Below are positions 8,069-57,471 of a stretch of DNA of 57,797 nucleotides, in pieces. The stretch is from a virus (Duplodnaviria > Caudoviricetes), in IMG/VR virus record IMGVR_UViG_3300046163_000011, positions 1-57,797 of that record; one strand, given 5' to 3'. Position numbers and translations under genes: made by a program. The notes under the pieces are model-generated. The model was not told where the DNA came from. It did not search any database and worked only from the letters and a program-made list of their open reading frames with translations. The stretch's first letter is position 1. The number at the start of each line of letters is the position of its first letter.

Positions 8069-8974
8069 ATGGCTATTTCTCGCGCACAACTCCTGAAGGA
8101 ACTTTTGCCCGGTCTAAACGCACTGTTTGGTTTGGAGTACGACAAGTACGAAAACGAACATGCAGAAATCTATGAAACTGAGACATCAGAGCGTAGCTTC
8201 GAGGAAGAAGTTAAGCTGTCAGGTTTCGGTGCCGCTCCGGTAAAGCCGGAAGGTTCAGCGATTTCCTATGACAATGCACAGGAATCCTTCACTGCTCGTT
8301 ACAACCATGAAACGGTTGCAATGGGTTTCTCTGTAACTGAAGAAGCAATGGAAGATAACCTATATGACGCGCTTTCAGCACGTTATACTAAGGCTCTTGC
8401 TCGCGCTATGGCTTACACAAAGCAAGTCAAAGCCGCTTCTCTATTAAACAACGGCTTCACCACTTTCCAGTCTGGCGATGGTGTAACCCTGTTTAATGCT
8501 AATCACCCAACTGTACAAGGCGGCAACAATGCAAACCGTCCAGCAGTTGCGGCTGATTTGAACGAAACATCTCTAGAAGATGCAGTTATCAACATTGCGG
8601 CTTATGTCGATGAGCGTGGTCTTTTGATCGCGGCTCGCCCACAGAAGCTAATTGTTCCGCCTGCACTGATGTTTGTTGCAACTCGTTTGCTTCAGACTGA
8701 TGGTCGTGTCGGTACTGCTGATAACGACATCAACGCTCTTCGTTCAAACGGTTCGATCCCAGAAGGCTTCTCAGTCAACCACTACCTGACTGACACAGAC
8801 GCCTTCTTCTTGACAACTGACGTTCCAAACGGCATGAAGCACTTTGTCCGTACAGCAATGGCAACATCTATGGATGGTGACTTTGACACAGGCAATGTTC
8901 GCTACAAGGCCCGTGAGCGTTACAGCTTTGGCGTTTCAGATCCACTAGGCATTTACGGCTCACCGGGCGCGTAA
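8069..8974 (+). CDS. Major capsid protein
   Basis: 301 aa with Mu gpT-like capsid motifs (GFSVTEEAMEDNLY, LIVPPAL, RERYSFG); strong SD AAGGAG; followed by a terminator. Confidence 0.88.
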   Translation: MAISRAQLLKELLPGLNALFGLEYDKYENEHAEIYETETSERSFEEEVKLSGFGAAPVKPEGSAISYDNAQESFTARYNHETVAMGFSVTEEAMEDNLYDALSARYTKALARAMAYTKQVKAASLLNNGFTTFQSGDGVTLFNANHPTVQGGNNANRPAVAADLNETSLEDAVINIAAYVDERGLLIAARPQKLIVPPALMFVATRLLQTDGRVGTADNDINALRSNGSIPEGFSVNHYLTDTDAFFLTTDVPNGMKHFVRTAMATSMDGDFDTGNVRYKARERYSFGVSDPLGIYGSPGA

Positions 8975-8975
8975 A

Positions 8976-8992
8976 TTGTACTATGGTACAAA
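8976..8992. promoter_or_regulatory. Palindrome TTGTA-N6-TACAA
   Basis: TTGTA CTATGG TACAAA immediately after the capsid stop codon. Confidence 0.7.
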
Positions 8993-9001
8993 CTTTTGCG
9001 A

Positions 9002-9029
9002 GGGCGGCTTTCGGGTCGCCCTTTCTTTT
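9002..9029 (+). terminator. Intrinsic terminator after the major capsid gene
   Basis: GGGCGGC-tttcgg-GTCGCCC hairpin followed by TTTCTTTT. Confidence 0.8.
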
Positions 9030-17545: not shown

Positions 17546-18762
17546 TGGCTTTAAGTGTTATTGGCAGAAATCAAATAGCACTAAACGTTAACTCGTTAGA
17601 GTGGCAGTCTTTAAAAAGCGCATCTTTTACCGCTTCTGCGGGAGAGGCGTATCCCATTGACACTACATCAGGGGCTGTAACGGTAACGCTTCCTGCGTCA
17701 CCTTCGGAAGGTCATACTGTTCAAGTTCTTGATGTTGCGGCTACTGCCGATACTAATTTTATTACCCTCGCCAGAAACGGGAATAATATTAATGGATCTG
17801 CTAGTAACTATGCGCTTGGAAAAGAGCGCGGTGTTGTGAGTGTTGTTTATTCAGGATCATCGCAGGGATGGTTTGTTTCATCAACAGCAGGGACAGGCTC
17901 TACTTCTATAGGAAAAATTCTTGCAGTTGACGCATTAATTATAGCTGGTGGCGGTTCTGGTGCGTCTGGCTTTGGTAATGGTAACGGATCTGGTGGCGGC
18001 GGCGCAGGGGGTCTTCTTTACGTTGCTTCAAAGCAAGTTATTGAAGGTTACAGCTATACAGTAACTGTTGGTGCTGGCGGCGCACAACAAACAGCGAACA
18101 GAGGAAACAACGGCGGCGGTCAAGTTGGTAATGATGGCAATAATTCTGTTTTTGACGGAAGCACCGCAATAGGCGGCGGTGGTGGTGGCTCCCCAAGCAC
18201 AGGCGGTCACACGGGCCGAGATGGTGGCTCTGGCGGCGGCGGCGGCTCTGGTAACGGAGCGGCTGGCGGGTCAGGGACAAGCGGTCAAGGAAACAACGGC
18301 GGCGCGGCCTCTACTGGCAGTATTTATCGCGGCGGTGGCGGAGGTGGTGCTGGTGCAGTTGGTACTGCGGGTTCGTCAACTCCAAACGGTGGTGCTGGCC
18401 TCAATACATACTCTGCCTTTACTACAGCAACATCAACAGGCTCAGGTGGATATTACGCTGGCGGTGGTGGCGGTGGTGACTACACAGGTAACAACACATC
18501 TGGCTCTGGTGGCGCTGGTGGTGGCGGGTCAGGTGCCGGAGGAACAAATAGTGGTGGTGCCGCAACAGCAAACACAGGCGGCGGCGGCGGCGGGGGAGGA
18601 TCTCCTGTCACAGGAAACACTGGTGGATCTGGCGGCGCTGGAGGTAGCGGCATAGTAATTATTAGATACTTAGGAAGCCAAACCGCTTCAGGCGGCACGG
18701 TAGTTGAGTCTGGCGGTTACGCTTACCACACATTCTTATCTTCAGGGACTTATATAGCATAA
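17545..18762 (+). CDS. Glycine-rich tail fibre protein
   Basis: Long GGGG/GGAG tracts, LIIAGGG...GSGIVIIRY; N-terminal DTTSGAVTVTLP module. Confidence 0.7.
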   Translation: MALSVIGRNQIALNVNSLEWQSLKSASFTASAGEAYPIDTTSGAVTVTLPASPSEGHTVQVLDVAATADTNFITLARNGNNINGSASNYALGKERGVVSVVYSGSSQGWFVSSTAGTGSTSIGKILAVDALIIAGGGSGASGFGNGNGSGGGGAGGLLYVASKQVIEGYSYTVTVGAGGAQQTANRGNNGGGQVGNDGNNSVFDGSTAIGGGGGGSPSTGGHTGRDGGSGGGGGSGNGAAGGSGTSGQGNNGGAASTGSIYRGGGGGGAGAVGTAGSSTPNGGAGLNTYSAFTTATSTGSGGYYAGGGGGGDYTGNNTSGSGGAGGGGSGAGGTNSGGAATANTGGGGGGGGSPVTGNTGGSGGAGGSGIVIIRYLGSQTASGGTVVESGGYAYHTFLSSGTYIA

Positions 18763-39200: not shown

Positions 39201-42200
39201 GGGCCAGATGCCGAAGCGTACAAGAACGAGTACAACTCTCAGGTCGCTCAAATCAATCGTAGTGACGCACCTGCTTGGAAGAAAGACGGCATGAAAAGCG
39301 GCCTTCCTTTTGGCCTTAACAAGAAATACGAAGGCACTACATCAACAGCAATACAGACAGCGCACCAAGGCAGAAATCCAAAAGGCAAAGCTCTTGCGTA
39401 TGCCCCAGCAGTAACTGTGCGTGATGTGACATTCTTGGTTGATCAGGGTGCAAGAGCCTCTATCTCCACTGGACTTGCTAACAAGTTCCCAATGGCTGGT
39501 GTTGCTGGAAACATAGCCCACGGCGTTAACTCTACTCGTGGCGTAGAGGTAAAGTTTAATCCGTTTAAGCACCATGTATTCGTGGCTTCATTCCCACAGG
39601 CAGACGGCACTCGCGTAGAAGTGCCAATCAAGTCAGCAGAAGAAGCTACTGTATATGGAAACACTGTCTATGTTCGAGGCAAGCTAGAGTTCTATGAGGA
39701 TGGCGAGTTACCTGTAGCCAAGACATCAGCTACTGGCACTCTTACAAGAGCGCTAGAAGGTGACGACCCTGCCAATGTTGGCAATAAAGTTACAAAGCAG
39801 ACAAATGTACCATCCTACAATTTTGATCTGCCAGAGAACGCTCAGGGGGTTGAAGTAATATCAGACTTCCTAAATCAGGAAGAGATTGGACGTAAGTATT
39901 CTATCCGTCAGCTTACGCCGGAACTTGCCAAGCTAAGTATTCTGCATCGCCTTGATGAGGACGGTAACTTCAAGACTACATATAATATGCGTCAGAAGGC
40001 AGATGGCACTTACGGTATTGACTACATATCAAAGGGTGAGGCGCTACATCTTTTGCAATCAGAAAGAGGCAACGCAAAGTTTGAGTATGTCCCTAGAAAG
40101 GGGTTCAGCAAAGAGGCAGAGGAAGAAATAGCCATTGTCATGGCGGCGGAAGCCGAAGCCGCTTTGAACAGAGATGGCAATGCTATTGGGTGGTACGACA
40201 GAACACTGAAGCTGGCTAAGAAGATGCTTACGCCAGTGTTCCCAGAGATTGCCACAGACCCAGCCGCAGAAGCTGTGTTTGATTTTGCTCTTGCTGTCAC
40301 ATCAAACGGCATCGCTGTAGTGCAGAACTTTAAGTATGCCGCAGAACAGTATAGGGCTTTCAAAGAAACAGGGCGCTTCCCAGTTGTAGGTTATGGCGAC
40401 AGAGAAAAGGCCATGAAGAAGGCGTTTCTTTTCTACAACGCTATGTTGGAAAGTGGCAAAACTGAAGCTCAAATAGCAGAGTTCCTTGATCAAGACACAA
40501 CTCCCAAGTTGATGGATCAGAACAGCGTCTTGCAAGATCTTGGAATAACTGCGCCAGCAGGGGAAGGCAAAAACTCTCCAGTTAAAATGTCTTTTGTGAT
40601 TGGGCCGAAGATTGGTCAAGGCTTCTACCAGAACCTTAGAGGCAACTATGATGTGCTGACTATGGATATCTGGTGGATGCGTATGTATAACCGCATCACT
40701 GGCAATCCATTCAAGGACATCACTAACGCCACCCTAGATAAGGGCAGAAACGATGTCGTAAAGCTAACTAAGGCGGCTTTGAAAAGAAGCACAGATCCTA
40801 GCGAAGTGCAGTCCACTGAGGATTATACGTCAGAAGATCTGGCCTATGAAGCGCAACTGGTTCAGGATACCCTGAAAGCAGAAGATATAGACATTATCAA
40901 CAAGGATAATGTTGATCAGGCGACTCTAATAATTGAAAGTGCTTTTCAAAAAGCATTTAGAGATGCGCCTACAGATGCCAGACCAACAAAAACAGACCTA
41001 TTCAAAAGAACTGGCACACACGCAGAAAACCTTGGTGGTGATGTAGAGCAAGCGGCTCCTAGAGGTTCAACTGATCGCACACAACAACGCCGCATCGCCA
41101 AGAGAGCCTTGGACATTCTTGAGGAGAACACAGGCACACGCATTAGCATGGCTGATTTTCAAGCCCTAATGTGGTATCCTGAGAAGCTCTTATTTAGAAG
41201 TGTAGGTGTTCGCCCCGGTCAAGGTAGCGACAGTGATTACGTTGACGGTGTTATTGAGCTATTAAGAGCGGAAGGAATTACAGATGGTCAGATCGAAGAA
41301 GCACTCCCCACAACAGACAGACACAGAGTCAATCCTGATGTCGATCCCAGACGACAGGATGGAGGAGTTCGTGAGGGAGTTGCAGATGACCGCTCCACCT
41401 CAGATTCCAAAAAGTACAGCGGCAGAATCCTTGCCCGAAACCTCAGAGACTTCATAAAGCAAAATCCAGATGGATACACTATAACCACTGGGGGCGGCTT
41501 TGCTGACATTGACGGAAAGTATGCTGTTGCTCCCCTGAAGTCTGCTGAGATAATCAGTGGTAACACACTACCCACATCTGTTTTGCTTGAGTACATTGAG
41601 CAGACAAGGCAGATATCAGAGATATATGGAACAGAGCTATATCTCGGTGGTTGGTTAAACAGCGAAAATAGTAAATTCTATCTCGACAGCACAATGCTGG
41701 TTGATGAGCTAGACACTGCCCTCTACATTGCTGATGCTGGTCAGCAAGAGGGGATATTTGACTTTAACACGTTTGAGGAAGTGAGAACCCAAAATGGCAT
41801 CAACCAACTCAGAGAAAGTGGAACTTATCGGAGTGAACTCGCGGAGCGATACCTCAGAGATACTGAAGAAGCTGACAAACAATTTACGAGCGCAAGGGCT
41901 GAACGTGGTGGACGATTTATCACCGCAGAGCAAGTTGCCGCAGAAAGACGCGAAGAACTCCTAACAATCAGTTCTGTTGCTGATGAGGACTATGCATTCA
42001 CAGAGTTTATCTCTCCAGAGATGGAGCAGATGGTTCGTCAAATTGATAATGTAATATCAGCACAAGGCTCAGAACAGCCATCTCGTCTGTACGCTCGCCG
42101 TCCAGTACGTCAGTTTGCTCCAGTGGCTAACGCTGTAGCTCAACGGCGCATGGACAACGGTGAAGATGTAAACATGAAGTTTCCGAATGTCCACGGGTAC

Positions 42201-45200
42201 ATGGTGGACAACTTCCAAACTGGCGAGCAAATACCTGTTTATCTGTTTGCTGGTGACGATGTAAGCCCAGATGACGATGGGGTATCTGGTGATAAAAACC
42301 ACGGCCTGTTTCACATCATACAACGCAACCACGACAAAGAGCTTGTCGAGCAGTCAAAGTACCCAAGTGTACAACAGGCTATATATGACCTGTTAAAGAA
42401 ATGGGAATCACAGGGTTATAGAGACGGATCTGCTGTTGTCGCAATGCCAACAGGCAACTTTGAGTTAGCACTTGAATGGAATAATGACATTCCTCGCAAG
42501 TCAGGCCCGCTAAAGCTGGTGCTTACAAAAGCTAGAGACAAGTCTGGCAAGCCTTTTTATTACATCAAGACATTCTATCCATTTGGTGCGGAGAAGAAGA
42601 AAAGTGTGCGGTCATTCAACCCACAGCTTCTCAACACCACTGCGTATACTCCGACTGTGCAGAACATGATTGGTCAGGCAGAAAACAACATCACTTATAC
42701 TGCCTCCTTAAATTATCTGTCTAAGTTTCTTTACATTCCTGCTGGCCTGAACATGGACAGGGCAAAGGATTGGTCAGAGCGTCTCATTACGCAATTCCAA
42801 GACCGATTTGTGCATATTGGGAAAATCGTAGATGAGATGAAGGCTAATGGTGTGACCGTCACAGACATGATGGACACATACCTGCAAGAGAGCAATGCCC
42901 AAGGTATAATAGGAGATAAGCTAAGAGAGAGAGAAAACCTACACTATAATAAACTTGGCAAACAAATATCAGAGCTTGAGGTGACTGATGCTGAGTTCAA
43001 TGATTTAAAAGGCGCATCTAATAGAAATCGCAACCCACAAGGCGGCAGTCCGTTTGGCTTTGTAGAGACTGACTATACATACAACAAAAGCAAGGCTATG
43101 ACATTAGCAGAAGCGTATCTGTATGCCTTACACGCAAAAGAAAGAAATCTTCGCATACAAAAACATATTGATCCTACCAGTGAATCTGGTTCAGGTATGA
43201 GTGATGCAGAAGCAGACGCGATCCTAAATCAAATATCTCAGATGTCTCCGGAGACACAGCAGAAGCTAAGTGAAATTCGTAGTAGCCTACAAAATCTTAT
43301 ACAAGACACAAGAAATGTTCGCGCTGAATCTGGTCTAACAACATCTGACATGACAACTCAGATAATAAATGATCCAAACGATCCTGATGTTACGATAGAA
43401 GTGGAAGAGTTTGTAGATTACATACCTCTACGAGGAAAGTTTGATGTTCTTGGTGAGGCCAGCGAAGAGGGAAACTTTGGCGCTACAAGAAGCCCACTTT
43501 ATGGAGCTAGAGGCCGCGAAGATAAACAGATGCTTGGTCGTGAGTATAGCGGTTATGCTACAACAATTATTGTTGGAGCTATGCAACAGAACCAGAACTC
43601 GGTTATTCGTGGTGAGCGTAATAAGGTTGGTCAGAGCTTTTACAGATTGTTGCTCGGTCAACAAGACGCTGACGGAAATCCATTGCCAGATGACCAAAAA
43701 GCAGAAGTGCAGAGAATTATGTCTCAGTACGCCTACATAATGGACAAAGTACCAATGCGGCGTATCTTGGACAAGAATGGCAGGGTTTCAATTATTCCTG
43801 ATCCAAGAGGAAAAGAAGGAAAGCTATCTGTAAAGATTGATGGTGAAGAAGTCCTTATAGATTTTTACGACCCAAGAATCGGTCAAGCAATGATCGGAAT
43901 GAGCGGATCTCCAGAGAAATCTAATGGATTTATGAGAGCGGCATTCAAGTTCAATAGATATCTGTCCACAATTAACACCACATACAACCCATCATTCTTC
44001 TTTACCAATATCTTCCGTGATATCCAAACTGCTGGTGTGAACATCAATCAGTTTGAACGTGAAGGTCTTACTAGAGAAATGATGAGCAACGTAAAACAGT
44101 CTTGGAAAGCTGTTCGCGCTGGAGTTCGCCTTGAAGAAGAAAGCTCGATAACAAGAGAAGACGCATTGCAACCGGGGTTTGACATTAACTCTGTTTCTGA
44201 CGTTGACCTATTTAGACTGTTCCAAATTTTTGGTGGTCAAAATGCTCTGAACCAGACCAGTAGTTTGCAAGACCAAATTGAAAATATCGACAGTATTCTT
44301 GGAGATATACCGCGTGAAGGATTTAAGGCTGAAGTAAAAGACTTTGCTGGAAAGTATGCGGCTCCAGTAAAGAGACTTGGTAAATTCTTAGAAGACTACA
44401 ACACAGTCGCTGAAAATATGATGCGTGTAGCCGCATTCAAAGCACTCGCTCCAAGGGTTGGTATGGAGAAGGCCGCTTTTGCCGCCAGAAACCTTACAGT
44501 TGATTTTGCAAAAGGTGGTGAGAACAAAACACTTCTGAACTCCCTATACCTTTTCTACAACGCATCTATGCAGGGTTCATTCGCAATTCTCAATGCTCTT
44601 GCCCGTTCAAGAAAAGTGCAGAAGATTTGGGCTGGTATAGTTGTGGCTGGTATGGTGCAAGATCAGTTGAACGCCATGCTGTCAGAAGAAGATGAAGATG
44701 GCGATTTGGTGTATGACAATCTTAAGCAATGGAGACTTGAAAATAACATCATGTTACCACTTGGGAACAAGAAATACTTACAGATACCCCTGCCATATGG
44801 TCTGAACGCCGCATTTAATATGGGCAGATCACTTAGCAGATTCTCAAGAGGCCAATACTCTATAGGACAAGCTGGGTCAACAATCTTTGGAACTGCCACA
44901 GATGTGTTTAACCCATTCGGCGGCAACCTTGGTGCTGTTATAACAGGAGAAGATGGCGCAAGCATAGGCAACGTAATTGCTCCTACAATAGCAGATCCTT
45001 TTATTGACGTTATGTTTGATAATACAGATTTCAAGAACAGTCAGATTGCAAAGAAGCCAAACGCATTTGACCCAACACCTACACCTAACTCACATCTGTA
45101 CTGGTCAACAACAGACCCTAATTTTGTGAAAGTAGCACAAGCCATTAACTCACTTACTTTTGGTAGCAGTGTAGAAAAAGGCTTCATAGATCCATCACCT

Positions 45201-45692
45201 GATGTTCTTGAGCATATATATCAGTTTATGACTGGCGGCGCTGGGTCATTCGCCGCAAGGGTTGGCAACTTCGGCATAAATGTAGCCCCTGCCGCACTAC
45301 AGGGTGACTTTGAAGAAGATATGATACAAGCCACACCAATAGCCAGACGCTTCGTTGGCTATGTAGGAGAGCGTGGTGACACAGAAGAGTTCTTCAACGG
45401 AAGAGATAAAGTTTTGCTTGCTGGTGAGGTTCTGAAGAACGCATACGCAGTAGGAAACATGGAAGAAGTTGAGAGCGTGAAGAAGAGGTTTACAAAAGAG
45501 TTGCGTATCTACGGAGCGATTAAGAATGTAAACAACGCTCGTAACCGCATCCTACGCAAGATGGCAAAGATCAAAGACAACCCAAGGATACCTAAAGCCA
45601 CTAAGGATGCCGCTATCAAAAAGTTGAGCGAACAGGTAAACGCGATAGTGATGCGTGGTAATCAATACCTCAACCAATACGACATACAGTGA
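36276..45692 (+). CDS. Giant polyvalent internal virion protein (zincin peptidase, HhH-glycosylase-like, BECR-nuclease-like, LPD38-like C-terminus)
   Basis: HEIIH at 38496 plus EEEAVAE; GWYD/LAVTS/GPKIG/TMDIW/FQALMW; HGLFHIIQRNH; YLQIPLPYG..PFIDVMFDNTDF. Confidence 0.75.
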   Translation: MALIPVQDPQTGKLYNVQIAGDTPTQQEITEIKEWLASQSQPVETTTPIAETTPAEEPGFLESTAGAGIDQIQALFGSAAEGVGNVTGFDGLRDWGREVNEANEAEYAEKTQNRQQLEDVGGVGDFAKFAGESVVEQLPQLGMSLAAGYAGGKAGAFTGGAIGSFAGPAGIAIGAGIGATVGGVGGMVAANLPFIYGSHREAQKDQIEAGVQTEVDEGVAFLTAIPATALETIAEKVMVGKFLTPKLINSGGIFTRVTKNAATGALVEAPTELGQQVIERAQAGKDLLSDDAFKEYGHAALVGGLVGSSVKGTGGAFTKDQRKVDLEEEALKRSQLEQDEKVEDAQLVGGFAAAQKEADARTEDEVVKAQVIQQGRSVADDERAREKAEAQINSENKPVNFADLDPEVVKTINIQRQRAQAAGMPVGTPRRTTIEEMRALGLDEAADVELKKQKDTFVDKHDRNTTERKFSQEQYDKAKAKILESGKADDKTIIESIRETLPEGQDKVPVTLIEEIRQELALNRVIETNNGKDYNVAPEGIRDEDAAEPLRQRVSRSRARLDAIQAKVKELETLYDQQATINQTPDQKSAARAELSTQLQGLNVEAKREEADIRNTQRQIDTIDAQTGANEQIGNIRHDQAQARLAFSAAKEAAKAPKKADYETRMQKLVTGLQSYLKGIGLGDVNLTVQSLLEPDKIAGGQLVEGYYESSNKLIALATDLYDPTLSDAEYEARLRAVLNHEIIHAMRDVGVFTDAEWNTLTNAAAKRKYNVIINGKPLERLYTFMERETRRQQFTPPERMDGETQEDYDIRSEAAAARHQDLVEEEAVAEMFRAWTDGRLKLGGKPQSLFKRMISFLSGVGKAHYDEDITASDQIFEGIVRGDMASREFKVEPKSVPETAPEEAKMYSYGRVFPDNLSTFEDEIITIDQALDTHNFPQNVQDKLLGYTKTEDDADIREGTVVTVRLNLNGRTFLGPDAEAYKNEYNSQVAQINRSDAPAWKKDGMKSGLPFGLNKKYEGTTSTAIQTAHQGRNPKGKALAYAPAVTVRDVTFLVDQGARASISTGLANKFPMAGVAGNIAHGVNSTRGVEVKFNPFKHHVFVASFPQADGTRVEVPIKSAEEATVYGNTVYVRGKLEFYEDGELPVAKTSATGTLTRALEGDDPANVGNKVTKQTNVPSYNFDLPENAQGVEVISDFLNQEEIGRKYSIRQLTPELAKLSILHRLDEDGNFKTTYNMRQKADGTYGIDYISKGEALHLLQSERGNAKFEYVPRKGFSKEAEEEIAIVMAAEAEAALNRDGNAIGWYDRTLKLAKKMLTPVFPEIATDPAAEAVFDFALAVTSNGIAVVQNFKYAAEQYRAFKETGRFPVVGYGDREKAMKKAFLFYNAMLESGKTEAQIAEFLDQDTTPKLMDQNSVLQDLGITAPAGEGKNSPVKMSFVIGPKIGQGFYQNLRGNYDVLTMDIWWMRMYNRITGNPFKDITNATLDKGRNDVVKLTKAALKRSTDPSEVQSTEDYTSEDLAYEAQLVQDTLKAEDIDIINKDNVDQATLIIESAFQKAFRDAPTDARPTKTDLFKRTGTHAENLGGDVEQAAPRGSTDRTQQRRIAKRALDILEENTGTRISMADFQALMWYPEKLLFRSVGVRPGQGSDSDYVDGVIELLRAEGITDGQIEEALPTTDRHRVNPDVDPRRQDGGVREGVADDRSTSDSKKYSGRILARNLRDFIKQNPDGYTITTGGGFADIDGKYAVAPLKSAEIISGNTLPTSVLLEYIEQTRQISEIYGTELYLGGWLNSENSKFYLDSTMLVDELDTALYIADAGQQEGIFDFNTFEEVRTQNGINQLRESGTYRSELAERYLRDTEEADKQFTSARAERGGRFITAEQVAAERREELLTISSVADEDYAFTEFISPEMEQMVRQIDNVISAQGSEQPSRLYARRPVRQFAPVANAVAQRRMDNGEDVNMKFPNVHGYMVDNFQTGEQIPVYLFAGDDVSPDDDGVSGDKNHGLFHIIQRNHDKELVEQSKYPSVQQAIYDLLKKWESQGYRDGSAVVAMPTGNFELALEWNNDIPRKSGPLKLVLTKARDKSGKPFYYIKTFYPFGAEKKKSVRSFNPQLLNTTAYTPTVQNMIGQAENNITYTASLNYLSKFLYIPAGLNMDRAKDWSERLITQFQDRFVHIGKIVDEMKANGVTVTDMMDTYLQESNAQGIIGDKLRERENLHYNKLGKQISELEVTDAEFNDLKGASNRNRNPQGGSPFGFVETDYTYNKSKAMTLAEAYLYALHAKERNLRIQKHIDPTSESGSGMSDAEADAILNQISQMSPETQQKLSEIRSSLQNLIQDTRNVRAESGLTTSDMTTQIINDPNDPDVTIEVEEFVDYIPLRGKFDVLGEASEEGNFGATRSPLYGARGREDKQMLGREYSGYATTIIVGAMQQNQNSVIRGERNKVGQSFYRLLLGQQDADGNPLPDDQKAEVQRIMSQYAYIMDKVPMRRILDKNGRVSIIPDPRGKEGKLSVKIDGEEVLIDFYDPRIGQAMIGMSGSPEKSNGFMRAAFKFNRYLSTINTTYNPSFFFTNIFRDIQTAGVNINQFEREGLTREMMSNVKQSWKAVRAGVRLEEESSITREDALQPGFDINSVSDVDLFRLFQIFGGQNALNQTSSLQDQIENIDSILGDIPREGFKAEVKDFAGKYAAPVKRLGKFLEDYNTVAENMMRVAAFKALAPRVGMEKAAFAARNLTVDFAKGGENKTLLNSLYLFYNASMQGSFAILNALARSRKVQKIWAGIVVAGMVQDQLNAMLSEEDEDGDLVYDNLKQWRLENNIMLPLGNKKYLQIPLPYGLNAAFNMGRSLSRFSRGQYSIGQAGSTIFGTATDVFNPFGGNLGAVITGEDGASIGNVIAPTIADPFIDVMFDNTDFKNSQIAKKPNAFDPTPTPNSHLYWSTTDPNFVKVAQAINSLTFGSSVEKGFIDPSPDVLEHIYQFMTGGAGSFAARVGNFGINVAPAALQGDFEEDMIQATPIARRFVGYVGERGDTEEFFNGRDKVLLAGEVLKNAYAVGNMEEVESVKKRFTKELRIYGAIKNVNNARNRILRKMAKIKDNPRIPKATKDAAIKKLSEQVNAIVMRGNQYLNQYDIQ

Positions 45693-45865
45693 TGAAGAAG
45701 AGAAACCCTATCGCCAAGTTAATACGAGATCCGAGATTTAACAGTAGATCTGTTAAGTCGAAGAAGGTGTACACTAGGAAGGGTAGGCAAAAAGAATTTG
45801 TAGCAGGGTACAAAAAGGGGCTAGGTCAATATGATCCAGCCCCTTTTTATTTAGCCACTATTTAG
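45692..45865 (+). CDS. ArfA-like small basic protein (57 aa); absent from the ORF track
   Basis: MKKRNPIAKLIRDPRFNSRSVKSKKVYTRKGRQK...; TGATG-coupled to the giant gene. Confidence 0.65.
   Translation: MKKRNPIAKLIRDPRFNSRSVKSKKVYTRKGRQKEFVAGYKKGLGQYDPAPFYLATI
45797..45814. promoter_or_regulatory. Palindrome TTTGTA-N6-TACAAA
   Basis: TTTGTA GCAGGG TACAAA just before the terminator. Confidence 0.7.
45812..45852. terminator. Bidirectional intrinsic terminator at the convergence of the late and recombination operons
   Basis: AAAAA-GGGGCTaGGTCA-ata-TGATCcAGCCCC-TTTTTATTT. Confidence 0.8.
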
Positions 45866-46262
45866 GCTCTCTACCAGCCCAATACTTAGGAGTGTTGAGT
45901 ATCTTATTTCTATACTCTTCATCATTACTCAAGCGATACTGTTCTGTATCCCAGTGCCTGTTGATGTTACAATTCCAGAAGTAATACCAACCATGATGCT
46001 TGCCATATTTTGTCACTTCAATAGCAGGGCTGTACAAGATTGTTACCTTTCTTTCCTTGTCTGAAAGATCACCAAGTTCTTTTCTGTGATAATAATGCAT
46101 CTCCCCGTATCCTAACTCTCTGAGTGTTATGGCTTCAAATAGCTTATCGTTCACTATCTTCTCGCCATCCTCTGTGAACCAATGTTTAGGTTTTGCTCCG
46201 TACACGACTGTCTCCTGTGAACTATTGTGAAGTTTCTTGTGTTTGATTGTGCTTATCTTCAA
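45858..46262 (-). CDS. Hypothetical protein
   Basis: 134-aa ORF overlapping the AlpA-like gene. Confidence 0.55.
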   Translation of the reverse strand: MKISTIKHKKLHNSSQETVVYGAKPKHWFTEDGEKIVNDKLFEAITLRELGYGEMHYYHRKELGDLSDKERKVTILYSPAIEVTKYGKHHGWYYFWNCNINRHWDTEQYRLSNDEEYRNKILNTPKYWAGREPK

Positions 46263-46422
46263 TCCATTTCACAATTACTTCACGCTTCCATCGCCTAATT
46301 CTTGGCGATAATACGATTGGTGGTGGAAAACTCTCATCTGTGTTGATGATGTGGTACACAGACTTTGGCCTAATGGATAGCATTTCCGCTATCTCTTTAT
46401 GGTCAACTAGGTTGGTGGTCAT
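46222..46422 (-). CDS. AlpA/excisionase-like HTH protein
   Basis: KEIAEMLSI..SVYHII..FPPPIVLSPRIRRW. Confidence 0.8.
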   Translation of the reverse strand: MTTNLVDHKEIAEMLSIRPKSVYHIINTDESFPPPIVLSPRIRRWKREVIVKWIEDKHNQTQETSQ

Positions 46423-46874
46423 TCTTGATACCCCTTTTTATTTCTTGTGAACTTTTCAACCAAAGTCTTGAACTGTTCACGGGCTTTTGAATTGTTCCTG
46501 AGTTCCCCTCTGCTTTCTATGCCAAGATATGCCCTTAGACCGTCAGCAACCACTGCCTCACAGTCTGTGGGATCATAGTCATGTATAAAACCACATATCT
46601 TCATGAACTCTGCAAACTCAGGATTTCGACATAGCAGACCAGCTTGAGATATCATCTTGTTAATCTCTCTGTTCTGATCTGGTATTTGTGGGGTATCGTC
46701 ATCACCCAACTTAACCATAGCCACCATATAACGAGAGCCTACCCAATCTGTGTGTAGGCTTGGTGGGCATTCATTGGGATGCAGTGCAAGCCTTAATATT
46801 ATTCCATCCTTGCCCTGAGACATTGACGTTTTAACCGCCTCAAAGTTAACGGCGGCATCTCTTACATCAGCCAT
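46419..46874 (-). CDS. Hypothetical protein
   Basis: 151 aa; AGLLC..F and LGIESRGEL motifs. Confidence 0.65.
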   Translation of the reverse strand: MADVRDAAVNFEAVKTSMSQGKDGIILRLALHPNECPPSLHTDWVGSRYMVAMVKLGDDDTPQIPDQNREINKMISQAGLLCRNPEFAEFMKICGFIHDYDPTDCEAVVADGLRAYLGIESRGELRNNSKAREQFKTLVEKFTRNKKGYQE

Positions 46875-47118
46875 CGTACTTACCCTTCTTTAAATGTCCA
46901 TTTGCATTAACATTCAGTTTTATTTCAACCAACTGATCACGCGCCCTTTTTTGCACATTACCTTGAAAGTTCCCGCGCTTTTGGTTTGAGTAGCTTCTGT
47001 CTTGCCTAGTGCCGACAACAGAAAGACCGTAATTTTTAAAGTTAACAACCCTGTCGTGCATCATTTTTATATGAGCCGCAAATTCCTCAGTTGTCATATC
47101 AGCCGCGCTCTTGTCCAT
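46867..47118 (-). CDS. Hypothetical protein
   Basis: Coupled ORF with SD GGAGA. Confidence 0.55.
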   Translation of the reverse strand: MDKSAADMTTEEFAAHIKMMHDRVVNFKNYGLSVVGTRQDRSYSNQKRGNFQGNVQKRARDQLVEIKLNVNANGHLKKGKYDG

Positions 47119-47359
47119 TTCCGTCTCCTTTCGCCAGCTTTATTCTGCCAAGAGCCACATCAACCATAGCGCACCACATATCTAGCCTGTTGTGATGAGT
47201 TGGAAGTTCAGCTACCACTTCTAGCATTTCATCTGTAGGTTGCCTCATGGCAATGATTGCCTGTTCAGCCAAGTGGTCATAAAGAATTGGTGTGCCATTA
47301 GACATCAAGCCTTCATGAGCCTTCATAATAGCGAATGCTACTTTATCAACTTGCTCCAT
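47099..47359 (-). CDS. Hypothetical protein (start MEQVDK)
   Basis: AIIAMRQPTDEM...WCAMVD pattern; SD GGAGA. Confidence 0.55.
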   Translation of the reverse strand: MEQVDKVAFAIMKAHEGLMSNGTPILYDHLAEQAIIAMRQPTDEMLEVVAELPTHHNRLDMWCAMVDVALGRIKLAKGDGNGQERG

Positions 47360-47633
47360 TAAATTTCTCCCAATTAACACGCGCCCAAGAAATAGGGTCA
47401 ACGCCTTGCAAATCCCACCACGTTCTTTCGTCACCAAACAAATGCAACTTCATGTGGCAAGGGTGGCACAGAGGAACACACCAGTTGTCTCCCACCTTCA
47501 TTCCCATAGCATTAGGCTCTGCGAACATGATGTGGTGAGCCTCTGCGCCATACCCACAGACCAGACACGGAGATCCGCGCAAGGTCTGCAAGTATTTCTT
47601 AGACCTGATCCGCTTAGAACGGAACGCTGTCAT
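47346..47633 (-). CDS. DUF968-like HNH/zinc-finger protein
   Basis: PCLVCG..AHH..GMKVGDNWCVPLCHPCH..LH. Confidence 0.75.
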   Translation of the reverse strand: MTAFRSKRIRSKKYLQTLRGSPCLVCGYGAEAHHIMFAEPNAMGMKVGDNWCVPLCHPCHMKLHLFGDERTWWDLQGVDPISWARVNWEKFNGAS

Positions 47634-47910
47634 CTAGCTTTCCAGCAGACTGATCAGAAGAACCATCACTGTTTGGATTTTCTTCAAACTTATTTCCAAG
47701 CAACGACAGAAATACTGCGCCAGTCTTCTGGCTCATTTTTTTCCACCCGATAAGAGACAGAACAGGCTTCTCAACACCCCTCTCCATCTGGGCAACAAGG
47801 TCTTGCAAGACCTCATCAGAAAGTTCTAACTTGCCTGTGTAGTCAGGTGATTTGTCAGAACGCTTACGATTGTTGGTGAATAAAACACCTGATGGTGGAT
47901 ACTGGCTCAT
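47614..47910 (-). CDS. SSB-like protein (DUF736-like)
   Basis: LF.N..K..DKSPDYTG..GWKK..FLSL; acidic tail DDSVPF. Confidence 0.6.
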   Translation of the reverse strand: MSQYPPSGVLFTNNRKRSDKSPDYTGKLELSDEVLQDLVAQMERGVEKPVLSLIGWKKMSQKTGAVFLSLLGNKFEENPNSDGSSDQSAGKLDDSVPF

Positions 47911-48557
47911 GCCGCTTTTCCTTCTAAAGTTTCTTTGTGAGCGATGAAGTCTTTGAACACATCATCGTATAGGGCTTTGTCTTTTGTCTCCAAAAGATCG
48001 ATGGCCTTCTTGTTCTTTGCCCAAAACCCCCTTAATTCAGTTATGTCATTACACTCCGGTATGAAAGTCTTAAACACTTCCCCGACAAGGCTGTAGTCCT
48101 CAACGGTTTTTTTCTCACCGTTTTTGTTCTCAAGCTGTATCGTTTCTGGCTGTGGCTCAACACCCTCTGGCAAGTCTTCGCCAGCGTATATATAATGACC
48201 CAATCCGTGCATAGCACAGCACTTAGCCAAGCACCTCTGAATAGCAGTGTTAACGCTAAACGAGTCTGGATGCTTCATGGCTTTGTTTTTGAAATCCAGA
48301 ACAGGCAGTAACTCTGTCTGCTCATCGTCACCAATTTTTACAGTGACAGACACAAAAGCAAATCCTTGATCGTCCTTCATGTATGGATAAGTTCCATTTG
48401 TAGTATTGTACAAATGTTTTTGAAAGACCGCATTTGGGTAATGCTTCTTCACAATCCCCCAAGCCCATGCCCATGACAGGTACGTTAAGTTCCCCTTCTT
48501 CTCGGTGTGTTCAGACACATCGATACCAGAAAGCGTTTCCCATATTGTTTCGCTCAT
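47907..48557 (-). CDS. Sak3/DUF1071-like single-strand annealing protein
   Basis: EKKGNLTYLSWAWAW..LPVLD..N.AIQRCLAKCCAMHGLGHYIYAGEDLP. Confidence 0.85.
   Translation of the reverse strand: MSETIWETLSGIDVSEHTEKKGNLTYLSWAWAWGIVKKHYPNAVFQKHLYNTTNGTYPYMKDDQGFAFVSVTVKIGDDEQTELLPVLDFKNKAMKHPDSFSVNTAIQRCLAKCCAMHGLGHYIYAGEDLPEGVEPQPETIQLENKNGEKKTVEDYSLVGEVFKTFIPECNDITELRGFWAKNKKAIDLLETKDKALYDDVFKDFIAHKETLEGKAA
48397..48414. promoter_or_regulatory. Palindrome TTTGTA-N6-TACAAA inside a CDS
   Basis: TTTGTA GTATTG TACAAA. Confidence 0.5.
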
Positions 48558-52005: not shown

Positions 52006-52304
52006 TGAGTGGTGGTTCTGATACCCGAAGGGGTGTAATGATGCTCAGTGAGGCTCAGAGCGCGATTAATGATAGGGGTGAGAACTATGGAACGCCCTTG
52101 GATAACTTTACGCGCATAGCTAAACTTTGGTCTGTTGTTTTGGGCGTAGAAGTACAGCCGCATGAGGTGGGGTTGTGTATGGATTTGGTAAAGACAGCAC
52201 GTTTGATTGAAACGCCTGACCACTACGATAGCTGGGTGGATAAAGCTGGCTATGCGGCGGCAACAATAGAATGTTTTGAAAAGGGCAACACAACGCTTGA
52301 TTAA
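52002..52304 (+). CDS. DUF6378-like protein
   Basis: DRGENYG.P.DNF.RIA.LWS..KTAR..DSWVDKAGYAA. Confidence 0.75.
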   Translation: MMSGGSDTRRGVMMLSEAQSAINDRGENYGTPLDNFTRIAKLWSVVLGVEVQPHEVGLCMDLVKTARLIETPDHYDSWVDKAGYAAATIECFEKGNTTLD

Positions 52305-52323: not shown

Positions 52324-52361
52324 TATAAGGGGAACAGGAAAGTTGTTCCCTTCCACGACAA

Positions 52362-52389
52362 AGGGGCTGGCGTAAAAACCAGCCCCTTA
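52362..52389. terminator. Hairpin/terminator between convergent operons
   Basis: AAGGGGCTGG-cgtaaaaa-CCAGCCCCTT. Confidence 0.65.
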
Positions 52390-53565: not shown

Positions 53566-53781
53566 TCATTCATCATCTTCCCCTTCTATTTCATATTCTA
53601 ACCAGCCATTAGAAGCGTCAACTCCCAACAAAAACATTTCTTTATCTGCTTCTGTATTGAAAGCGTATGTTTCAGACTTATCTCTATCTGTACCCCATAT
53701 AATGGTAACAGCGTGATTTGCATTGTCGATATCCTCTTGGACTTGACCGATGCAATTAACCAGTGGTTTTTGTACTACCAT
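53566..53781 (-). CDS. Hypothetical protein
   Basis: 71 aa; SD AAGGAG; start codon inside a palindrome. Confidence 0.55.
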   Translation of the reverse strand: MVVQKPLVNCIGQVQEDIDNANHAVTIIWGTDRDKSETYAFNTEADKEMFLLGVDASNGWLEYEIEGEDDE

Positions 53782-53786
53782 ACAAA
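53769..53786. promoter_or_regulatory. Palindrome TTTGTA-N6-TACAAA overlapping a start codon
   Basis: TTTGTA CTACCA TACAAA. Confidence 0.7.
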
Positions 53787-53873
53787 TTTCTCCTTTTGTA
53801 ATCCTCGCCAGCGTCTATGCCAGCATCTACAACTATCATGAAAAGAAGGGCGGCAACTGCCGCCCCTCTGTAA

Positions 53874-57422: not shown

Positions 57423-57440
57423 TTTGTAGTGTGATACAAA
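57423..57440. promoter_or_regulatory. Palindrome TTTGTA-N6-TACAAA
   Basis: TTTGTA GTGTGA TACAAA, identical to the 54947 copy. Confidence 0.75.
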
Positions 57441-57471
57441 ATGGGGGGCAGTGTTGCCCCCCCCTGTTTGG

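Follow-up and report, generated by a model that had tools for sequence, protein, structure and literature searches.

An ArfA-Like Phage Gene with a Terminator-Like Hairpin Ahead of Its Stop Codon

Results

The ArfA-Like ORF and Its Coordinates

We analyzed the genome of a marine phage, a whole IMG/VR virus record (IMGVR_UViG_3300046163_000011; Duplodnaviria, Caudoviricetes; 57,797 bases, estimated to be 97% complete), hereafter the window, and focused on a small open reading frame (ORF) that resembles the Escherichia coli ribosome-rescue factor ArfA and runs through a terminator-like hairpin before it reaches its stop codon (Table 1). The ORF is the final gene of the late virion-gene strand, and its ATG shares one base with the stop of the preceding giant gene (TGA at 45690–45692), the two together reading TGATG. 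An alternative GTG start at 45689 would give a 58-amino-acid (aa) form, which is already present as a gene call in the protein collection, but the sequence favors the ATG at 45692, because relatives begin MKKRNP. A first-pass annotation, made from the sequence alone, had described this 57-codon ORF as coupled to the giant gene, and the translation from the ATG to the TAG is exact. The same annotation had regarded the locus as a ribosome-rescue module sensing the load on transfer-messenger RNA (tmRNA), an interpretation that is partly supported by our results.

Table 1. Features at the locus and copies of the palindrome in the window
Feature	Position	Strand	Remarks
Giant virion gene (polyvalent, LPD38-containing), 3138 aa	36276..45692	+	Last large gene of late strand; TGA overlaps small-ORF ATG
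ArfA-like ORF, 57 codons + TAG	45692..45865	+	Translation and homology
Conserved ArfA-like core, residues 1–35	45692..45796	+	Alignment with ArfA
Palindrome copy TTGTA-N6-TACAA	45798..45813	strandless	Within ORF, codons 36–41; conserved in relative L057
Bidirectional intrinsic-terminator-like hairpin, stem 45812–45848, 5' A-run, U-tract 45844–45852	45812..45852	both	Upstream of ORF stop
TAG stop of small ORF	45863..45865	+	14 nucleotides past 3' end of stem
Convergent ORF, no family match	45858..46262	-	Stop 45858–45860; 8-nucleotide overlap with small-ORF end
TTGTA-N6-TACAA copies	816, 8976, 28264, 29391, 29802, 45798, 48398, 53770, 54948, 56135, 57424		Palindrome

Homology to ArfA

When the peptide was searched against the PDB with phmmer, all five matches at E ≤ 10 were ArfA chains, each of them weak (E 0.7–0.9); with a profile of 39 phage relatives all six matches at the same threshold were ArfA, the best having an E value of 8.9e-6. 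In a BLASTP comparison with the E. coli K-12 arfA product, 15 of 34 positions were identical with one three-residue gap (pairwise E 3e-6), and hhalign, given the 39 phage sequences and 15 enterobacterial ArfA sequences, returned a probability of 94.7% over 37 columns (E 6.2e-8). The profile comparisons agree with the ArfA-like identity put forward at first pass, and the ArfA core quoted there matches that of the product encoded by E. coli K-12 arfA. On this evidence, we conclude that the peptide is a divergent member of the ArfA superfamily, a homology that we regard as well supported.

The phage group and ArfA are bridged by three bacterial sequences (L145, L146, and L147) that exceed the Pfam ArfA cut-off. 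They come from the bacterial genomes G118, G051, and G144, that is, 3 of the 151 genomes in the class of a Pseudomonadota metagenome-assembled genome (MAG), and one of them combines the MKKRNPIA start seen in the window with the GKG segment of ArfA. Two of the three have ordinary stops and one, L147, has a terminator inside the ORF. Among the 39 phage relatives, 8 match Pfam ArfA, all below the cut-off (best E 1.2e-3), and 23 match DUF7230 (PF23876). The latter, a family to which no function is assigned, is also what the window peptide matches best in Pfam, and E. coli ArfA itself matches DUF7230 only at an E value of 0.11; we found no literature on this family.

The peptide had only a chance-level match, to GldJ, in NCBIfam and fell into phrog_20887 of PHROGs, which has no function attached; an Atlas look-up gave nearest clusters carrying DUF7230 with scores below 0.9, which we take as a lead only. 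A tblastn search of cultured phages with the peptide gave 30 records, nearly all labeled "hypothetical protein" and all weak (E 0.01–1), among them Acinetobacter T4-like, Sinorhizobium, and Agrobacterium phages.

Residues Shared with E. coli ArfA

The likeness to E. coli ArfA (YhdL; PF03889) extends over ArfA residues ~12–45 and includes the basic tail and the Asn, Pro, Phe, and Tyr-x-Arg-Lys-Gly landmarks. The aligned pairs (window/ArfA) are N5/N14, P14/P23, F16/F25, R19/R28, K22/K31, K24/K33, K25/K34, Y27/Y39, R29/R41, K30/K42, and G31/G43, and they bear out the ArfA motif that the first-pass annotation had read in the peptide. The basic run K22, K24, K25, R29, K30, R32, and K34 aligns with ArfA 31–46 and reaches the equivalent of Asn47, so binding in the mRNA tunnel is predicted. 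According to PMC5378476, the basic residues 31–48 of ArfA fill that tunnel, and a cut at Asn47 is tolerated whereas a cut after Met40 is not; the same source describes Pro23 as touching the decoding center and Leu19, Leu24, and Phe25 as binding RF2 at Trp319. The window peptide keeps P14, L10, and F16, with R15 in the Leu24 column, and its conserved core stops at the Asn47 equivalent. A predicted complex of E. coli RF2 with residues 1–40 scored 0.00 and speaks neither for nor against binding.

A Large Phage Family

Of the 8000 candidates scored with the profile of 39 members, at least 1250 protein clusters matched at E ≤ 0.001; almost none has a name, and a few carry DUF7230. Relatives were located at 56 loci in viral contigs and at 130 in metagenome contigs, of which 80 were kept. 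Across prokaryotes, represented by one genome for each of 185,579 species, we found only five loci, all in MAGs or scaffolds, and the family is thus essentially viral. The conserved core reads RNP-[IV]-A-K-x-L-R-x-P-x-[FY]-x-x-R-x-V-K-S-K-K-V-Y-x-R-K, with Asn5, Leu10, Pro14, and Phe16 of the window kept across the phage family, and sequence beyond the core is unconserved.

This conservation bears on the simplest alternative, that the ORF is no gene and merely an open frame left by chance over the end of the operon. Although the ORF is short and has no evident Shine–Dalgarno sequence upstream, we consider that explanation highly improbable, as the family is conserved at the protein level, with synonymous change, across its at least 1250 clusters, the MKKRNP start is retained, and the TGATG coupling is kept in L057, the closest sequence-distinct relative.

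Some members lie in unusual contexts. At L049, L025/L096, L007, L012/L019, L010, and L031 the ArfA-like frame is found inside or across a longer open frame of 460–590 codons in another phase, and in Pelagibacter phage HTVC033P a match at 18411–18482 lies under a coding sequence annotated as carbohydrate-binding protein; such arrangements may reflect overlapping genes or mis-set starts. One viral contig, L044, carries two family members ~2.7 kb apart (cores at 303 and 3058).

A Terminator-Like Hairpin inside the ORF

The region 45790–45870 folds at −27.3 kcal/mol (z −3.36), and 1 of 200 shuffled sequences folds equally well. In a hairpin scan of the window, the stem at 45812–45848, with Us at 45844–45848 and 45850–45852, was the strongest plus-strand terminator-like site of the whole window (−20.9 kcal/mol), the minus-strand score being −19.3. 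It contains the shorter hairpin, 45817–45843, that the first-pass annotation had placed before the stop, and the U-tract end at 45852 and the stop at 45863 are likewise as given there. The small ORF has no in-frame stop before 45863. The convergent ORF on the minus strand shows the ordinary order, its stop preceding the same hairpin in its own direction.

The palindrome upstream of the stem belongs to a set of 11 copies in the genome, against 0.05 expected. Several copies lie near terminator-like hairpins: that at 8976 precedes the hairpin 9000–9023, that at 45798 precedes the stem within the small ORF, that at 57424–57439 adjoins a minus-strand site at 57462–57443, and that at 53770–53785 is ~60 nucleotides from a minus-strand site at 53869–53844. 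The palindrome is probably the binding site of a putative regulator, paired with terminators. The same palindrome-plus-terminator module is intergenic after the gene ending at 8974, whereas the last 22 codons of the small ORF cross such an intergenic-type palindrome and bidirectional terminator, codons 36–53 being the module itself. As these codons read a module that is intergenic elsewhere, the small ORF has no end of its own and runs into control DNA.

Order of Hairpin and Stop across the Family

We took a census of hairpins of −12 kcal/mol or better in the family, which is represented by 88 distinct versions at the DNA level. The hairpin lies between core and stop in 26 versions, contains the stop in 1, and follows it in 4; the other 57 have an ordinary stop and no hairpin. 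With the irregular cases L010 and L029 left out of the group count, the 26 versions with a hairpin before the stop fall into five sequence-distinct groups, namely the window, A, C, D, and E. The 15 versions of group A (L001–L006 and L058–L071) have one common hairpin overlapping the R-K-G-R codons. Its stem is invariant, and the average identity is 90% in the 84 nucleotides upstream and 66% in the 84 nucleotides downstream; the stops lie 29–209 nucleotides downstream of the hairpin. Groups C and D have clear U-tracts, and group E (L012–L020; 6 versions) has none. In groups A and E the stretch that codes for the conserved tail, R-K-G-[RK]-S-x-[RK]-P-F, also forms the hairpin and thus provides both peptide and RNA structure. 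An in-ORF hairpin is also found in E. coli arfA, where it likewise precedes the stop, and in the Pfam-passing bacterial L147.

As a baseline, we used the ORFs of at least 80 codons at strict terminators (35 distinct sites) within the same 621 kb: 17 of these ORFs end ahead of the terminator and one runs through it. Reading through is seen in 5 of 8 ArfA-like groups and in 1 of 18 baseline ORFs (Fisher p 0.0045), a contrast that is weakened by the small number of units, groups being counted as such, and by somewhat different hairpin rules in the two censuses. The question raised at first pass, whether relatives keep the terminator before the stop, therefore has a divided answer: four subgroups besides the window's own have a hairpin there, and L057 and the many versions without a hairpin do not.

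Genomic Setting

The plus strand from ~1.5 kb to 45.7 kb carries packaging and virion genes and ends in the 3138-aa gene, and the minus-strand genes converging on it from beyond 45.7 kb, among them those for a Sak-like annealing protein and for an exonuclease, are replication and recombination genes. The placement of the small ORF at the end of the late operon, as first proposed, is borne out by this arrangement. Besides its LPD38 domain, the giant virion protein has a weak match to Phage_L5_gp82 and, over the first 300 residues, a match to a PHROG of virion structural proteins. A BECR-type RNase was detected in it neither by Pfam (E ≤ 0.1) nor by a PDB sequence search of 42099–42590; no fold search was made.

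By its large terminase, the phage is closest among cultured phages to 023Pt_psg01, DSL-LC04 (with Gammaproteobacteria as the stated host), and Pelagibacter phage HTVC027P (54.6%), and a megablast search of 44500–46500 against cultured phages gave no match. The phage has a G+C content of 43–48%, and no tRNA or tmRNA genes were found in its genome. RNA contigs of four metatranscriptome runs over 43500–47500 leave 45644–45777 uncovered, and one piece begins at 45898; they have no bearing on transcription or on 3' ends.

Discussion

A Probable Rescue Factor from a Proposed Message without a Stop

We interpret the small ORF, with moderate confidence and on the strength of its sequence, as encoding a phage ArfA-type, release-factor-dependent rescue factor that is expressed from a nonstop mRNA; the rescue function is what we infer from homology alone. 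On a ribosome that has stalled at the 3' end of a message lacking a stop, the basic half of the peptide, VKSKKVYTRKGR, would fill the vacant mRNA channel, and the front half, NPIAKLIRDPRF, would lie in the A site, where it would keep a class-1 release factor of the host, RF2 being the likeliest, in the active state. Release of the nascent chain would then require neither a stop codon nor tmRNA tagging.

The regulation would lie in the message itself. The small ORF would be translated by coupling to the giant late gene, and since no stop of the ORF precedes the strong terminator of the operon, most transcripts should end near 45850–45852 without one. Intrinsic terminators are expected to end transcription a few bases past the stem, and a message ending in codon 53–54 would give a stop-less product of ~52–53 residues. 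As long as trans-translation has capacity to spare, this product would receive a tmRNA tag and be degraded; only under saturation of trans-translation, a plausible condition in late infection, would it build up. Across the family, an arfA-style stop-less expression of this kind seems plausible and recurrent, and is not universal.

Comparison with Known Rescue Factors

The in-ORF hairpin or terminator is described for arfA and brfA in the review PMC8012679. The correspondence with E. coli arfA extends to the gene end: its 3' end overlaps the end of the convergent mscL by 4 nucleotides, much as the window ORF overlaps its convergent neighbor. The differences are equally clear, as the window gene is phage-borne, coupled to a 3138-aa virion gene, and below the Pfam cut-off, and in place of an RNase III site it has a U-tract terminator that also serves the opposite strand. 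At the 3' end of E. coli K-12 arfA, an arfA-derived small RNA is annotated (L148, 6432–6650).

BrfA of Bacillus subtilis and ArfT of Francisella are likewise small, release-factor-dependent rescue factors. For brfA, PMC8012679 describes a rho-independent terminator ahead of the stop, the same logic as in the window. The account in PMC6299226 treats ArfT and BrfA as separate families and has ArfT working with RF1 or RF2. No BrfA or ArfT matches appeared in our general Pfam, NCBIfam, and PDB scans; a direct sequence comparison was not made. ArfA itself is presented in PMC11633108 as the least conserved rescue factor, confined to Gammaproteobacteria, some Betaproteobacteria, and a few Bacillus.

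The only phage ArfA that we found in print, in a search that covered few subscription journals, is gp30 of HTVC027P. It is named ArfA in PMC12753301, where it is reported to be transcribed both early and late, and is labeled hypothetical in GenBank; it scores 20.2 bits on Pfam ArfA, below the cut-off. HTVC027P belongs to the same phage group as the window by its large terminase, and gp30 has in common with L024 and L044 the core NPVAK..R.P.Y..Q. It differs from the window peptide in possessing a G-x-G segment and an N-terminal extension, and its gene, which adjoins that of the small terminase, ends in an ordinary stop without a terminator. The gene that follows the large structural gene of HTVC027P, and so corresponds in position to the window ORF, encodes gp86, which is not ArfA-like.

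Evidence against the Reading and Alternatives to It

Several observations count against a stop-less rescue factor, some of them touching the protein and others its message. For the protein, Pfam ArfA (cut-off 25.5 bits) gave no match to the peptide at E ≤ 10, nor any in a six-frame search of the whole record, and the DUF7230 match, over residues 1–34, reaches 16.9 bits (E 0.0069) and so falls below its own cut-off of 27 bits. The peptide begins at the equivalent of Lys12 and is without ArfA residues 1–11 (the first ~9 in one count), it lacks the GKG segment, as had been noted at first pass, and it has Lys9 in the column of Ala18 and R15 in that of Leu24. In PMC5378476, Ala18 is described as packing on Ile11, and the change A18T as abolishing release.

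These losses from the minidomain and at Ala18 and Leu24, taken with the conservation that is highest in the basic, channel-binding half, would fit a ribosome binder that derives from ArfA and has no rescue activity. Such a protein might plug the mRNA channel or A site, blocking tmRNA–SmpB or a host defense factor, or might silence host ribosomes, all without activating a release factor. We hold this to be improbable: the short bacterial ArfA sequences that pass the Pfam cut-off, L145–L147, have the same start point and are likewise without Ala18, and the four residues conserved across the phage family, Asn5, Leu10, Pro14, and Phe16, belong to the side facing the release factor and decoding center.

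For the message, a simple consensus terminator scan of 44000–48000 omitted the hairpin site (3 sites found against 2.9 expected), an omission that may be explained by the internal mismatch of the stem. The 57 of 88 versions with an ordinary stop and no hairpin mean that nonstop expression is no family rule, and the majority of the family consists of short forms that lie in the middle of operons and end in ordinary stops. In L057, representing the 48-aa forms P0004–P0006 (69–75% identical), TGATG coupling, palindrome, and hairpin are all retained, and the stop, TGA, falls within the hairpin loop before the U-tract, which would give an ordinary mRNA. Furthermore, a terminator is required in any case at a convergent junction, where it acts on both strands, and by our own estimate a run of 18 codons without a stop is not improbable by chance (~0.4).

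A true ArfA-type factor whose overlap with the terminator is incidental packing would account for much of this. Read-through or stop-containing transcripts would then suffice for its expression, with no tmRNA-linked control. The nearest relative that stops in the loop, the predominance of seemingly constitutive short forms with ordinary stops, HTVC027P gp30 included, and a hairpin that serves both strands while the ORF tail is regulatory DNA all lend it weight. Set against it, ordinary genes of the same contigs stop before their terminators (17 vs. 1), the stop follows the hairpin in five sequence-distinct groups and in bacterial arfA, and in group A the stops drift 29–209 nucleotides beyond an invariant hairpin. 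The order is also unusual within the genome itself, which argues against mere packing: the other two compact plus-strand terminators follow gene stops (stop at 8974, then 9000–9023; stop at 52304, then 52361–52388). We consider incidental packing unlikely, although it is the strongest of the three alternatives, and retain the stop-less rescue factor as the preferred reading.

Implications for Phages and for ArfA

A broader proposal, which we make only tentatively and consider rather doubtful as it stands, is that a large phage branch of the ArfA superfamily takes over ribosome rescue during infection, with some members wired to the tmRNA capacity of the host by a stop-less message. Members of this branch would free ribosomes stalled on mRNAs broken by infection or by RNA-cutting defenses, leaving the products untagged. 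The phage branch has at least 1250 clusters, and the same tool gave 730 when started from E. coli ArfA. The family might then be viral in the main, with the ArfA of bacteria as one offshoot. The small ORF itself shows how a gene may borrow its 3' end from intergenic control DNA. If the proposal is true, part of DUF7230 and many "hypothetical" phage microgenes would gain a name, and a phage branch with the hairpin before the stop would mean that viruses routinely manipulate ribosome rescue.

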